Shown piece after piece: positions 28,901 to 37,900 of a stretch of DNA of 64,000 bases (position 1 is the first letter of the stretch; every line of letters starts with the position of its first letter). This DNA comes from Escherichia coli 042 (lineage in GTDB: Bacteria; Pseudomonadota; Gammaproteobacteria; Enterobacterales; Enterobacteriaceae), in NCBI RefSeq assembly GCF_000027125.1, contig NC_017626.1, one strand, 5' to 3'. Made by a program: the position numbers.

Positions 28901-31900
28901 TAACTCGTTTTGAAGAGGCTAGCAAACTAGCAACAGAGAGACGTGAGGATATTCTTGAACTTGCTGGTGTTGGAACCGTAATGTCTGGTGTACTACATGA
29001 GCTCACTAGGACAACAGGCCACACTCGACAGCTGTTACAAAAGTTATCTAAAGATGAGTCTCCTGGTACTAAAGCTTTATTAACGAAGCTAGATTCGGAA
29101 ATTAAAGCGATCAATACGCGACTTCGACAGTTAGATCCTTTAACACCTTCTGGAAGGCATCGCAAAGAAATATTTAATTTGTCAGCATTGCTGAATACTA
29201 TATTAGAAGGGTATGGAGCTCGCTTTGAACGGCATAATATAATTCCAGAATTCAAAATCTCTGGAGTTGATGATACTCAACCTGTCGAAGTAAATATGGT
29301 ACGTGGTTTTGTTAGCCTTGCAATTGAGAATTTAATTACAAACTCGGTTTATTGGGTTCAGCAGGGGGGGAGAAGTGATCGTCGTATTACTTTAGAACTA
29401 GATGCAGAATCTAGGACATTAACTTTGCGTGATAATGGGCCAGGTATTTCTCCTGCAGATAAAGACAGAATTTTCACTGCAGGATTTACAATGCGACCTA
29501 AAGGGCAGGGTTTGGGTCTTTTCATTGCAGCTGAAGTGGCTACCTATCATGATGCGAGGCTTTTGTTGGACTCTGCTGATGAGGATGGCCGATATAGAGG
29601 TTTTGTCTTGGAGCTTCCAAAGGAATGATTATGGATATTCAAAAGTCATTTACTGAATCAAAAATTTTAAAAGTAGCGATCGTTGACGACGATTTGTCCG
29701 ATTTAATTACTATGGACGATCTGAATACTATAGACAAGGATATTGCCAGTTTGCTTGGTGATCCATCCGATCCTGATTGTGAAAGTTACCATGAACTACT
29801 AGCATCTGAAGGCTATGATCTTGACGAAATAGAAGATCTTGCTCAACCTCTTTCAAATAAATCAATTAGAGAAAAAGCTCCTGAGCGTCTAAAAAATGCG
29901 GCAAATAAAATTATCGAATTTCGTTATGATAACGCCAAGCCAATTAGACGTGTTAAACAATTACTACTGGAAGCTGGCATTTTAGAGGATAATATTCATT
30001 ATTATTTTAGCCCTGAAATACCTAATGAAGAGTTTTATGATCTTTTAGTGATAGATTACTTCTTGGTAAAAAATTCCTCCAAGCATACTTTACCTTTTAT
30101 CAAAAAAATACTCTCAACTCATGAAAAGGCACCAAAGCCTTTACAAGTTATTCTGATGTCGACTTATGAGGCAGAGTTAAAAGCAGAATTCAGGAATATT
30201 CGTCCCGAGATAAGAACTTCAAGCTCAAGAATGAGAATCATGAGCAAACCAATGTCTGATGATGATTTAGTATACTGGCGCTCTGCTTTGTTCCAGTTAT
30301 CTTCAGATCGACAATTTGTCGATGCAGTAGAAAAATTTGTTACTGAAACAATAAGTGGTTTTCAACATGCTGCACAAGAACAAGCTAAAAGATTATGGGA
30401 GCTTGATCTTCAGGCAATGGATATTCTCCATGAAGCTGCAACATCTGATAATGATGATTTTTGCCGCTATGTTGAAGAATGTCTAAGTAGACAATTATTA
30501 ACGGCTCTAGAAGAATGCTCTGGTATAAGAAAATCATTAGGTGTTTTAGGTGAATCATTAATAAAACATAGAGCTAACAACGTAATTGCGCCTGTTACTG
30601 AAATTGGTGATTCGAGGGCGGCAATTAGAACACTAATGAGGAGTATGGAATGGCGTGGGGGAAATACCCCTAGCATGACAGAGTTTAAAGACCCTAAAGA
30701 CAGAGCAAAGTGGATTCAGAAAAATCTGAGATTTGGAATGGTACTAAAATCACCAGATGATAAAAGATGGCTTAATTTAACTCAAGCGTGTGATCTTGCA
30801 CAAACAAAAGAGGATAATTTAAATTCGGTATCTCTCTTGCTTATTAGTGGTTCCTATGCTCGGCCAGTTGGACGTGAGAATGGGCAATCATTAGTGTATT
30901 TGAACACATCATTATCTGATGCAGGTAGTGAGGTTTTGTGTTGGGATGTACGTAATGTTCAAACGCCCTCAATATTTGATTTTGCTCAAACGTTTTATAA
31001 TGGCTGGTCAATTACTGGAGAGCTTCGTCTAGACCAGGCTCAAAGTATAGCTGCTTTATATAGTTCTCGAACTTTAAGGGTTGGTCTTCAAAAAAGGCTA
31101 AGTAGCTGGTGTCTTGATGGTAAAGCTTTATTCATAAACAAATTAAATAACAGCGCTCCAAGTGATAAAATCGAGGGTACGACTATTTCTGGTCATGCGA
31201 TGAATCGTGGTAAACCCGACGAAGTACATATCGATAAAGATAGCATGATAAAGCTTCAAAGAGATTTTCCTAATAGTATTAATAAAATATCTCTGAAATT
31301 ATATATGGGAATGCAGCTAAAGCCTGGTTCAAAAAACCAAGAAGAAGGTATTTTGATTTATTGTGCTGAAAAGCCGGAGAATATAGAATCACTTCGTAGG
31401 GCTATTAATGATAATGATTTTTTAAATCGTGATGTTAATCAAAATAAAGTGGTAATAGCTCTATGGCATAAGTGATTTGATTTATTGCTAATTTATCAGG
31501 TGTATTATTTTCTCAATGTGAGCTAATTATTTCTTTATTAGCTCACATTGATATCCATTTATGTTAAATGATAAGGGGAAATTGTACTATAAAATATAGA
31601 CCAGATTAATTTACCCCTTCTTTTTATTTATGGCAAATTGCGCATGAGCCTCCGCCTTCATCTTCCCCATAAATTTCATCAATATCAATGAGAGTCTCAC
31701 CAGGGCGTAGTGGGTTAATGATTTTTTTCGCTTTGAGTCTGGCTTGCCGCTTTTCAAAATCAGTGACAATTTGAGCAATTCTTTCAGGCTCCTCAAGTGA
31801 CTCTAGTGATTCACCTTTAGTCCAAGTAAAGGGAGAACCATGTTCAATTGCATTTTTTTCATATCGTTTAGCTTCTTCAAATGCCTCTGGGTGACGCTCT

Positions 31901-34900: not shown

Positions 34901-37900
34901 GGATAATGCATAATCATATTGCTTTCCAACCATTGGGCGTCGATCATAAATAGCATCCGCGACTACTTGCGCTACTTTTTGAGTGTATTTGGGTCTTTTT
35001 TTAACATCTAACGCTTTACCTATAAGTTCAACAACTTCATCACTCCCTGCAACTAAGGGAATATCAGCATAACGGCCTTGGATTTTAGTCCACTCTTCAC
35101 GAGTTTCAAGTCCAAGTCGAACAGCATATTGTCCAAAAGATTGATGTAATATACCTAAGATAATGACTTTACCATTTGTACGTGCTGCAGATTCAGCAAG
35201 CTCTTGGTAAAAATAAATATCATCGCCATTTCCTAAAGCTGATGCTTCAAGGAACTTACCTAGCTCGTCAATGATAAGCAAGGTACCATCTAACTTCGCT
35301 TCATCTGCAGCACTGCATATGTGTTTAATAAGTAATGATGCTGATTTTTTATAATCTTTATCACTACCACAAACATTATTCAGAGTTTGCGAAATTTGTT
35401 GGATTATGCTACCTCTGCGGCCAATAACTGGAAGTATTAACCATCCTTTTTTAACTTGGAATGCTTTATCAAAATCACTTTGTGAATCGACATTTAACAA
35501 TGACCTTGCTTTTTCACGTAGAGCTTTGTTAGGTGATAATGAACTTGCAAGAACTAACGCTAATGATGATTTCCCACTTCCATACGGACCAGTCCATGTG
35601 AAAGCTCGCTGTTGGCTATTCAGAACCTGCTTGGACATGTTTTCAAGAACGCTTTGTGCCGTGCCATTGCATACATATCCATCAAGCGCATCTTCGCGGC
35701 CAAGATCAGCATCAATACGGATGGAACGTTGGTATTGTCTCGCAATGCGAACCTGTTCTGAAAGAAGGTTTTTATTATGTTTAGTCATAAGCCTTTCCAA
35801 GCATGTTCAATTTAATTACTTCTGTTTCTGATGTTTTACGATGAACCTGGCGTAAACCAGCTGTATCAGTCCATATAAATGAACCTTCAGTTAACTCTTC
35901 TAATGCGAATAATCGTTCTGCAATAGAGTCTTCATCGAGCTTAAATACTCTACCCGGAGAACCGTCCCCATATGCAATTGTTTCGAAGGATAATGAGCTG
36001 AGATTTAGGGCCTTACGCTCCCAATAATCGATCAGAGCATAAGCAAATACACCATCAGACAAAGTAATCTTTGGACCTCGACGAAATGAAAAGTGTCCTT
36101 TTTTTTCTTCAGCTAGTAAACCTAATTCACCAAGCATAGGTTCGGCAAAGTCTTCAGGAGTGGTTCCACTCGACCGCGGTGCATAACTACGCAAACATGT
36201 CTCAATATCTCGAGAAAGTGTCATTGGTGATAGTTTTCTCCCAGGACAACATTGCGTAGCATAGTCAGCTAAAAGAGCCCGGAGGTCTTCTTGTGTAAAA
36301 GATGAAGAAACAACATGGTTAAATAACCAGTACCAAGTTGTCGAGCGTTCTCCTTTTCCTGAAAGCTTCCAATGGCTAAGCCATGCTGTCGAGGGATGCT
36401 CTGAATAAGGATCAAGCCCATGTTCGCTAAATATTTTAATAGCAAATTCTGTAAGTTTGAATTTACCATCCTCTTCTCGCATTACTTCACAGGCGAGTGC
36501 CCAATGCTTGATTGATGCGACCATGTTTTTGCCTACACCAAATTTGGCAATGGCCTCATCATTCGAAAAAACCGATTTGTCAATAGAACCATCCGGCGCT
36601 GCATAACTGCAGGTTTTTTTTAACCACATTTGTCTTAGTGGGAAGGTCTCGTGACCTGAAAAGTGAGCCATGACTTATCCTAATGCGATAACAACTTTGT
36701 ATAAGCTGATTGTACAGGAACTGGAGAGTTTCACCAGTGGCGGCTTTTGGACATCATTGGGGTGGCGTAGCGGTTTTTTTTTTATTTTTTTCGTTAAAAT
36801 ACATATTGTTAATTGTTTTTTATTGCGGAGGGGAACTGTCTATATCTTCTCATGCATCGGGATTTTTAACAGGCCTGAGCTGGCATGTTCTACCGTTTCA
36901 CACAGAAAGGAACAGTTAGTTTCAAACGGATACTTATCAATCAGTGGTGTGAGAAATGCTAAGAGTGGGAAACGCACTTAATTTTATGATTTCTTAGTGA
37001 CCAGTTTTTAACCATGAGCTAATCTTAAAATCTGATTTTTATCAATGAGTTAATGTTGATGTACTATGCGGCAATGAATGAAGTGTATTGCCATTCCGAA
37101 TTTTTGCTCATTTTTTAGCCATTTCCATACTTTTTTGCGTGAATATTTTATGAACAATGTTCCTTTCATAACTTATCTGTCTCAAATGATACGTTTGGAG
37201 TTTACAATTACTAAATATTTAATGTAAGTGGGAACAGCTATTTTTTGTTCATATTAGCTCCCAGCAGCAAAAGATGATGTAATTCATCCGGTGCAGAGAT
37301 AATATAGGAATGGATAATCTGGAGAGCGACTCTGCAGGCTGATATTGCGGTTTTGCGGCAAGTTTTTGGCATCCGCTTCTACGCCAAATACCTGAAGTAG
37401 GAATGGATGCGTTAGCAGCATACATCCGGATCTGCGCGGGGAATAGCCGGAAACGGCTATCCCTACCACAATAGCTAACTTTGTAATAGTGCCCTTTTAG
37501 GCTCATGTACTCTGACGTAATTCTATCTGGTAGTTGAATTGCACGATACGCGACTCTTCTGATTCATCATGATTATTATTCAATAGCCCAATCAGTAACT
37601 TACCCGTCTCTATCCCCATTTTTTTGTAGTCAATACGGATGGATGTCAAGGTTGGGTGTGTTTGATCGCAATTGTCTGAACCATCAAGACAAGCTACAGC
37701 GATATTTTCAGGAATTTTTAACAAACGCCGCTGGCACTCAAACATGATACCCAGCGCAATCTCTTCGTGGCTGCAAATCACAGCATCCAGCTCTGGTTGT
37801 CGCAGTAATATCTCGTTTAATGCGTAACGCCCCAATTGCAGACTTGCGGCATCCGGCATGGTGATAACAAGATCAGAGTTCTGGTAATGGCTCAACATTG

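Follow-up and report, generated by a model that had tools for sequence, protein, structure and literature searches.

The stretch of DNA analysed here, a 64,000-nucleotide (64-kb) window on the chromosome of Escherichia coli 042 around the tRNA-Leu(CAA) gene leuX, carries an island with two convergent gene units. One of them, on the minus strand, is sspBCD, an operon for single-strand DNA phosphorothioation (PT). The other consists of two large plus-strand genes at 27244-31475, between an integrase gene and sspD, which encode a histidine kinase-like protein (HK) and a response regulator-like effector (RR). The first-pass annotation of this sequence described the sspBCD module and implied that it stands without a sensing or restriction component nearby. 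Most likely that reading is wrong, and the interest of the locus lies in the kinase/receiver-toxin pair.

The operon reads B-C-D on one strand, and its three open reading frames lie where they had been placed: the 296-amino-acid (aa) frame at 35781-36671, the 1114-aa frame, which begins with a TTG, at 32456-35800 and the 285-aa frame at 31624-32481. Their translations contain all the motifs reported earlier, namely Walker A (GPYGSGKSS), Walker B (LLIIDELGKF) and the PP-loop (SGGKDS). Profile search with PADLOC fully supports the earlier identification of an SspBCD-type PT module. SspB (35781-36671), named 'DUF4007 family protein' in RefSeq, matches its model over the full length (E=6.9e-115, 381 bits). 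SspC, a large P-loop ATPase with both Walker motifs, scores 1451 bits over residues 13-1050 (E=0), and SspD, a PP-loop/PAPS-reductase-family enzyme with the SGGKDS motif, scores 466 bits (E=1.4e-140). The genes do overlap, as had been noted, but the 20-nt overlap given for one junction stems from the upstream TTG. RefSeq and all homologs use ATG starts, which put the beginning of sspC at 35788 (32456-35788, 1110 aa) and that of sspD at 32463 (31624-32463, 279 aa); both junctions then measure 8 nt (ATGACTAA and ATGACTGA).

The first-pass annotation was also right that SspA and SspE are missing. Searches of the 64-kb window by tblastn, with SspA, SspE, SspF, SspG and SspH taken from related loci as queries, gave a best E of 0.096; E. 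coli SspE itself reached 0.18 and the SspF, SspG and SspH queries 0.11, and the neighbouring proteins have no PADLOC match to SspE, SspF, SspG or SspH. Nor is a cysteine desulfurase found in the window by tblastn with SspA, and iscS lies at another place in the E. coli chromosome. It is not unusual for SspA to be absent. IscS has been shown to replace it, and sspBCD of E. coli 3234/A functions without SspA (PMC8092258). An sspA gene is present in the related loci of Xanthomonas, Dokdonella, Devosia and Chlorohelix.

HK (27244-29628, 794 aa) was identified from Pfam, NCBIfam and PDB profiles. It has, in order, an N-terminal GHKL ATPase head (HATPase_c_3), a conserved centre, a DHp-like H-box (H585-E586-L587) and a C-terminal CA domain (HATPase_c). 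The head matches BbrUII/HgiDII restriction enzymes over residues 116-260 (NCBIfam NF050001, E=7e-19), and NCBIfam also matches the protein to sensor kinases. PDB profile searches place kinases on positions 524-786, across DHp and CA, with E down to 1e-14, and Hsp90-class GHKL ATPase heads on positions 64-239. The H-box does not vary among 13 HK orthologs, and neither do the ATP-binding motifs of either site. HK carries no membrane or small-molecule sensor domain, only this restriction-enzyme-type head, and its sole PADLOC match is REase_II. Both HATPase domains are clear in Pfam; the HEF_HK family is matched by HK only at i-E=0.065, and by 0 of the 13 orthologs at E<=0.001. The kinase family comprises at least 1418 clusters.

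RR (29631-31475, plus strand, 614 aa) starts 2 nt past the HK stop codon. Translation could instead begin from an ATG at 29625, which overlaps that stop as ATGA and gives a 616-aa protein, the frame in which RR residues are numbered here. A receiver domain (REC) with a helical insert (about 15-210) is followed by a helical linker (212-316), a MazF/Kid/CcdB-like domain (about 370-487) and a further subdomain (494-616). The REC catalytic set of D21-D22-D23, D144, S179 and K208-P209 is invariant in a 43-sequence alignment, and RR has the conserved Asp and Lys expected of a Response_reg_2 receiver. Taking the two proteins together, the REC acidic pair, D144 and K208, H585 of HK and both GHKL ATP sites are all invariant or nearly so. 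Pfam, NCBIfam, PHROGs and PADLOC return only a weak Response_reg_2 match for the 616-aa protein, and nothing in these four collections matches its C-terminal 400 residues. When residues 318-616 were modelled separately (predicted local distance difference test, 80.3), Foldseek ranked 33 MazF structures at the top, with a best E of 6.8e-4, probability 1.0 and target template-modelling scores of up to 0.69. On this model the C-terminal domain is predicted to have a MazF/CcdB-type SH3-like barrel toxin fold, and the similarity to MazF is claimed at the level of fold only, because the sequence-level tests described below were non-significant. No small gene that could encode a cognate antitoxin adjoins RR, the toxin-like domain being fused to REC instead, and no DNA-binding output domain is recognisable in the protein. 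The RR family is rare, with 353 representatives among 1.84 billion proteins, 45 of them at E<=1e-30.

HK-RR is strongly linked to sspBCD across bacteria. A profile search of genome contigs with the RR alignment gave four loci, too few for statistics, and contexts were instead gathered from contigs encoding the homologues and from a plasmid collection. The tally takes in every context that could be fetched, which amounts to 18 informative independent loci, two further loci being too short. In all 18, ssp genes adjoin HK-RR or sit within 8 kb. The loci span alpha-, beta- and gammaproteobacteria and Chloroflexota, and come from E. coli, Pectobacterium, two Pseudomonas, Xanthomonas, Pseudoxanthomonas, Dokdonella, Shewanella, Salmonella, Acinetobacter baumannii, Polaromonas, Agrobacterium, Devosia, Chlorohelix and four metagenome contigs. 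The linkage holds down to 31% identity for HK and about 23% for RR. Ssp is rare, occurring in about 2% of genomes (PMC12421847), and an association of 18/18 is more than clustering in islands can account for by itself.

The arrangement varies. HK-RR is convergent with sspD, as in the window, in E. coli, Pectobacterium, Pseudomonas xantholysinigenes, P. abyssi, Shewanella, two metagenome contigs, a Polaromonas plasmid and A. baumannii. Xanthomonas, Pseudoxanthomonas, Dokdonella and two metagenome contigs have a co-directional sspB-C-D-sspA-HK-RR order, with gaps of 52-72 bp in Xanthomonas, Dokdonella and one of the contigs (L009). On a plasmid of Candidatus Chlorohelix allophototropha (Chloroflexota; L028:3422-20409), HK-RR lies between sspC and sspD in a co-directional run, sspA-sspB-sspC-HK-RR-sspD, with abutting or overlapping genes, followed by SspFGH-like genes (annotation only). 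In Salmonella the pair is divergent from sspB, and an SspE-type GmrSD gene (Pfam) occupies the convergent slot. Other genes separate HK-RR from ssp on the Agrobacterium and Devosia plasmids.

Within E. coli, the slot convergent to sspD can be compared directly. An sspD-based survey found ssp in 25 of 5426 complete genomes. Nine, NCTC9082 among them, carry the present island at >=99% identity, with HK-RR in the slot. The sspD of 14 others is ~71% identical, and in the one of these that was inspected (L022) the slot holds SspFGH; in the last two sspD is ~69% identical, and the one inspected (L023) has SspE there, both assignments being PADLOC-confirmed. HK-RR therefore has the same position as SspE and SspFGH, the two PT-dependent effectors known so far. 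The sspBCD module of the window is unlikely to be partner-less, because the pair adjoins ssp in 18/18 loci and fills the place that SspE or SspFGH has in other E. coli strains. The effectors are also found together. HK-RR is stacked around one sspBCD with SspFGH in Polaromonas, with the SspFGH-like genes of Chlorohelix, and with the SspE-type GmrSD gene of Salmonella. SspE and SspFGH have themselves been reported as exchangeable modules, and their stacking around one sspBCD is also published (PMC8092258).

Among close relatives, the identities of all five proteins drop in parallel. In three more distant loci (L021, L024 and L026), identity to the window is 23-30% for RR, 36-44% for the kinase and 69-81% for SspD. 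Judged from these values, RR diverges fast relative to HK and SspD, a pattern that would be typical of conflict effectors. One of these loci is that of A. baumannii, which has the same five-gene layout as the window (HK 37%, E=1e-146; RR 24%, E=6.5e-14; SspD 69%).

The module appears to be mobile in several ways. Genes for the Tn7-like proteins TnsA, TnsB, TniB and TniQ adjoin it in Shewanella xiamenensis (L016:3016-7452), and its neighbours in A. baumannii (L026:20093-22316) have no annotation beyond 'endonuclease' and 'transposase family protein'. This suggests that the five-gene unit travels as transposon cargo, besides integrase islands and plasmids, and its presence on plasmids elsewhere is consistent with horizontal spread.

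Some of these clusters hold further genes. In P. xantholysinigenes, a 375-aa SRA_ScoMcrA-domain gene lies directly upstream of HK-RR/sspDCB (L004:6303-7430). ScoMcrA-type proteins read PT-modified DNA, and this gene could be an additional PT-linked component. DndB-like genes (PF14072) lie beside or inside Ssp and HK-RR clusters in Dokdonella (L008:11894-13162) and in a metagenome contig (L015:3573-5837), in the latter between sspD and sspA. DndB is a regulator of Dnd systems and is unexpected in Ssp loci.

Distant relatives of the pair accompany a different kind of modification gene. The Campylobacter jejuni plasmid pCJ14980A (L029:1-4454) encodes a 732-aa kinase and a 340-aa RR, convergent with dcm, and 41 Campylobacter plasmid records match; the plasmids are conjugative. 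The kinase is only 24% identical to HK of the window. The short RR keeps the phospho-acceptor Asp and most of the MazF-like motifs (F-G, T..C-D and R485), and is without R468, K208 and the last subdomain. A DNA-modification module is the partner in every case inspected, Campylobacter included. A sensor-effector pair that combines with writers of either PT or 5-methylcytosine would behave like the reading half of a restriction-modification (R-M)-type system.

The island itself is simple. It is inserted at leuX (25438-25522, plus strand; ARAGORN and RefSeq annotation), which is followed by a gene for a P4-type tyrosine integrase of 417 aa (25722-26975, plus strand; NCBIfam NF007246, E=1.3e-82). 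Related leuX integrases, at ~92% identity, are present in many E. coli genomes. GC content falls to 0.36-0.42 right after the integrase gene, from ~0.52 in the flanks. By megablast, the cargo that only the nine E. coli genomes have extends from immediately past the integrase to ~37279, roughly 10.3 kb, beyond which the sequence, with sugar-utilisation genes, is common to 894 other E. coli genomes. An IS110-family transposase remnant (37267-37374, minus strand; RefSeq annotation and megablast) marks the right edge. The island contains integrase, HK, RR and sspDCB only; an attR copy of the tRNA-Leu 3' end was searched for in the window and not found. The gap of 148 bp between the two convergent units contains a hairpin (31513-31551), found by repeat search and in the sequence as a perfect 15-bp inverted repeat with a 9-nt loop and AT-rich arms (TCAATGTGAGCTAAT and ATTAGCTCACATTGA). 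It is possibly a bidirectional terminator; a consensus terminator scan did not call it. The consensus promoter scan was uninformative, promoter-like sites being fewer than in shuffled sequence. Outside the island, a remnant of an IS66 TnpA accessory gene lies at 41067-41321, and a second low-GC patch (0.37-0.45) near the ornithine carbamoyltransferase gene has open reading frames at 9760-11271 and 13733-14956 (503 and 407 aa) with no NCBIfam match.

Taken together, the locus is in our view probably a five-gene PT defence island of two convergent, translationally coupled units, in which HK-RR is the cognate sensing and effector module and a third type of Ssp partner. This reading builds on what the genes encode, on their conserved linkage and occasional fusion into one operon, on the folds, and on catalytic residues that are intact for a phospho-His, a phospho-Asp and both ATP sites. 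In the first unit, SspB, SspC and SspD, with the housekeeping IscS encoded elsewhere, would put single-strand PT marks on the host chromosome. In the second, the restriction-enzyme/MutL-type GHKL head of the kinase would act as a DNA-surveying sensor and detect DNA whose PT status is wrong, most likely DNA that lacks PT, following R-M logic. The kinase would then autophosphorylate at H585, and the phosphoryl group would move to D144 of the receiver. MazF and Kid work as dimers, and activation of the receiver, probably via dimerisation, may turn on the MazF-like domain, which would cut RNA or otherwise poison the cell and so halt phage replication. We infer the signal and its polarity, the phosphotransfer itself, the target of the toxin and the antiphage activity. 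PT absence is the favoured trigger, given that some relatives pair with dcm and that the sensor head is of restriction-enzyme ancestry. It may be that the scheme is more general still, with a GHKL head that reads PT laid down by SspBCD or 5-methylcytosine laid down by Dcm and signals from His to Asp to a receiver-fused MazF-like toxin. We offer this modification-gated phosphorelay immunity tentatively, as somewhat less than an even prospect.

Several observations weigh against a PT-gated phosphorelay defence. The Pfam matches to HEF_HK and Response_reg_2 are marginal for the Ssp-linked branch. Pfam finds no PemK/MazF domain in RR, PDB profile search of RR returned no match, and comparisons by hhalign with MazF and Kid of E. 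coli were non-significant (E about 0.2). A Kid-like catalytic R468-x-D470 pair was considered and downgraded; D470 is not kept in distant members and the spacing occurs only in the close subfamily. We know of no MazF counterpart of the invariant C389-D390. Defence genes cluster in islands anyway, and the Agrobacterium and Devosia loci have genes between the units. At long range the two units decouple, Polaromonas SspD being 81% identical to that of the window and its HK only 36%; SspBCD and HK-RR are therefore exchangeable modules rather than one strictly co-evolving machine. The data fit either polarity of the trigger, PT lacking or PT present, and antiphage activity, phosphotransfer and toxicity are predictions.

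How else might the locus be explained? HK-RR could be an autonomous abortive-infection or defence system, or a guard against phages that disable PT, and in either case would not read the PT status of DNA. The long-range decoupling fits this idea, as do the pairing of distant relatives with dcm, the general clustering of defence systems and the several other defence genes in the Salmonella and Agrobacterium loci; moreover, Detocs, a published two-component defence system, reportedly requires no modification module. We nevertheless regard autonomy as unlikely. An 18/18 association with genes as rare as ssp is far above what island clustering would give, the operons with all genes in one direction and the placement of HK-RR between sspC and sspD point to co-expression and shared function, and even the dcm-paired relatives have a DNA-modification module as partner. 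It is also conceivable, though we find it rather improbable, that HK-RR is a two-component system that regulates PT modification or an epigenetic response to it and is not an immune effector. Kinase/receiver architectures are classically regulatory, DndB-like regulator genes occur in some HK-RR/Ssp clusters, epigenetic roles have been reported for solitary PT systems (PMC8092258, PMC9239176), and the A. baumannii pangenome paper raised this option (PMC12421847). Against this, no DNA-binding output is recognisable in RR, the conserved output of which is modelled as a MazF/CcdB-type toxin fold, HK has a restriction-enzyme-type head and no membrane or small-molecule sensor domain, RR diverges fast in the manner of conflict proteins, and the pair sits in the slot of SspE and SspFGH.

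That the window holds a true orphan SspBCD, with an unrelated two-component system adjoining it by chance, seems very improbable. PADLOC calls no partner at the locus, and 83.9% of sspBCD loci have neither SspE nor SspFGH, for which an orphan function as well as 'more diversified restriction counterparts' have been proposed (PMC8092258). Chance would nonetheless have had to place the same neighbour pair in 18/18 loci, in four bacterial classes and three arrangements, and the spread of a single recent island is excluded by the 23-85% range of identities and the differing flanking genes. The first-pass annotation had further pointed to BREX type 4 (BrxP/BrxC) as a similar gene pairing. SspC does have a secondary BrxC match of 356 bits and SspD a weak BrxP match (E=6.6e-11) in PADLOC, and homology between BREX and Ssp is documented (PMC12839542). 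Yet scores from the Ssp models are 4-10 times higher, separate genes encode DUF4007 and PAPS reductase, and translations and PADLOC agree with the first-pass annotation that the island has no PglZ/BrxL-type gene. We reject a BREX type 4-like system on the PADLOC scores and these missing genes, and leave it next to no probability.

Whether sspBCD loci without known partners are orphan epigenetic modules or have effectors yet to be found is an open question of the PT field, and the locus provides a testable candidate for a third effector class, in E. coli, where genetics is easy. If HK-RR is indeed the partner of sspBCD, this would be the first PT system with a phosphorelay-to-toxin output in place of a DNA nickase or translocase, and self/non-self discrimination of the R-M style would be coupled to an abortive-infection output without DNA cutting. 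Many 'orphan' sspBCD loci would then have the partner long sought for them, among them the Ssp system that about 60% of A. baumannii genomes carry. No defence system is more frequent in that species than Ssp without SspE, which is also a signature of global clone 2 (PMC12421847). A. baumannii has the same arrangement as the window, and the question bears on phage therapy against this pathogen. The dcm-paired Campylobacter relatives suggest that the principle extends past phosphorothioation. In the Ssp literature, searched with most subscription papers outside the search, only SspE and SspFGH are described as partners. The 2024 PT reappraisal by Rakesh/Aravind (PMC10853773) deals with Dnd only and mentions no kinase, and a V. 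cholerae WASA paper that was considered (PMC12137116) concerns an unrelated ABC-ATPase/nuclease system. The sole hint is one speculative sentence in the 2025 A. baumannii pangenome paper (PMC12421847). A PT defence system with a phosphorelay-type effector module is thus probably new here, although an earlier description elsewhere is possible.

Parts of the HK-RR pair have precedents. The HEF_HK and Response_reg_2 families were defined from a Pectobacterium gene pair by Bellieny-Rabelo et al. 2021 (PMC8011034). As in the window, an HATPase_c_3, H-box and HATPase_c kinase lies beside a long receiver-containing protein, and the link to DNA modification and the relation to paraMORC/restriction-type GHKL proteins were already noted there. 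The DNA-modification neighbourhood of that pair is found again as sspBCD here and as dcm in Campylobacter. In contrast to our results, PMC8011034 reports only type I/II R-M genes, C5-methylases, Vsr and HNH as neighbours, the enrichment next to C5-methylases, Vsr and HNH having come from a screen with only REBASE-derived domains; phosphorothioation, DUF4007 and PAPS reductase are not mentioned anywhere in it, and the C-terminal two-thirds of RR were left without assignment. If our reading is true, it would give a role to a pair that was described in 2021 without one. BbrUII/HgiDII restriction enzymes and the paraMORC ATPases (Iyer et al. 2008, as cited in PMC8011034) likewise have an N-terminal GHKL head and are paired in genomes with an enzyme that modifies DNA. 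HK differs from them in having a histidine-kinase core in place of the nuclease, and its predicted output would be a phosphoryl signal instead of a DNA cut.

On the effector side, RR is distinct from the toxins MazF/Kid/PemK and ToxN/AbiQ. RR shows no significant sequence similarity to them and lacks a separate gene for an antitoxin, whose controlling role would fall to the receiver fused to the domain. The domain's conserved T386, C389-D390, R468 and R485 are unlike the known catalytic sets. Detocs, said to have been described by Rousset et al. in 2023, offers another comparison. In it, a cytoplasmic histidine kinase reportedly signals to a receiver-effector fusion as an antiphage mechanism, and the system is said to comprise a kinase with a TPR-type sensor, a buffer receiver and a receiver-PNP effector, a nucleoside phosphorylase. 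The likeness lies in a cytoplasmic kinase that would signal to a receiver-effector fusion. The locus of the window differs in having two genes and no buffer receiver, a GHKL head, a MazF-like effector fold and an obligate association with DNA-modification genes. PADLOC 2.0.0 gives no Detocs match at the locus, although Detocs models are perhaps not in that version.

Finally, a comparison can be made with the Ssp systems themselves, of which SspABCD-SspE was reportedly introduced as a PT defence by Xiong in 2020. Like SspABCD-SspE and SspABCD-SspFGH, the island has an sspB-sspC-sspD operon, with sspA dispensable where IscS is present, and a partner module convergent to sspD; in all of them the partners are modular, exchangeable and sometimes stacked (Wang 2021, PMC8092258). 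The difference lies in the partner. HK-RR has no homology to SspE, a DUF262/GmrSD nickase, or to SspFGH by PADLOC and tblastn, and no recognisable DNase, and is predicted to form a His-Asp phosphorelay that ends in a MazF-like fold. Whereas the known partners damage DNA directly, this one would act by signalling, judging from the modelled fold, with an outcome that is probably at the RNA level or abortive.

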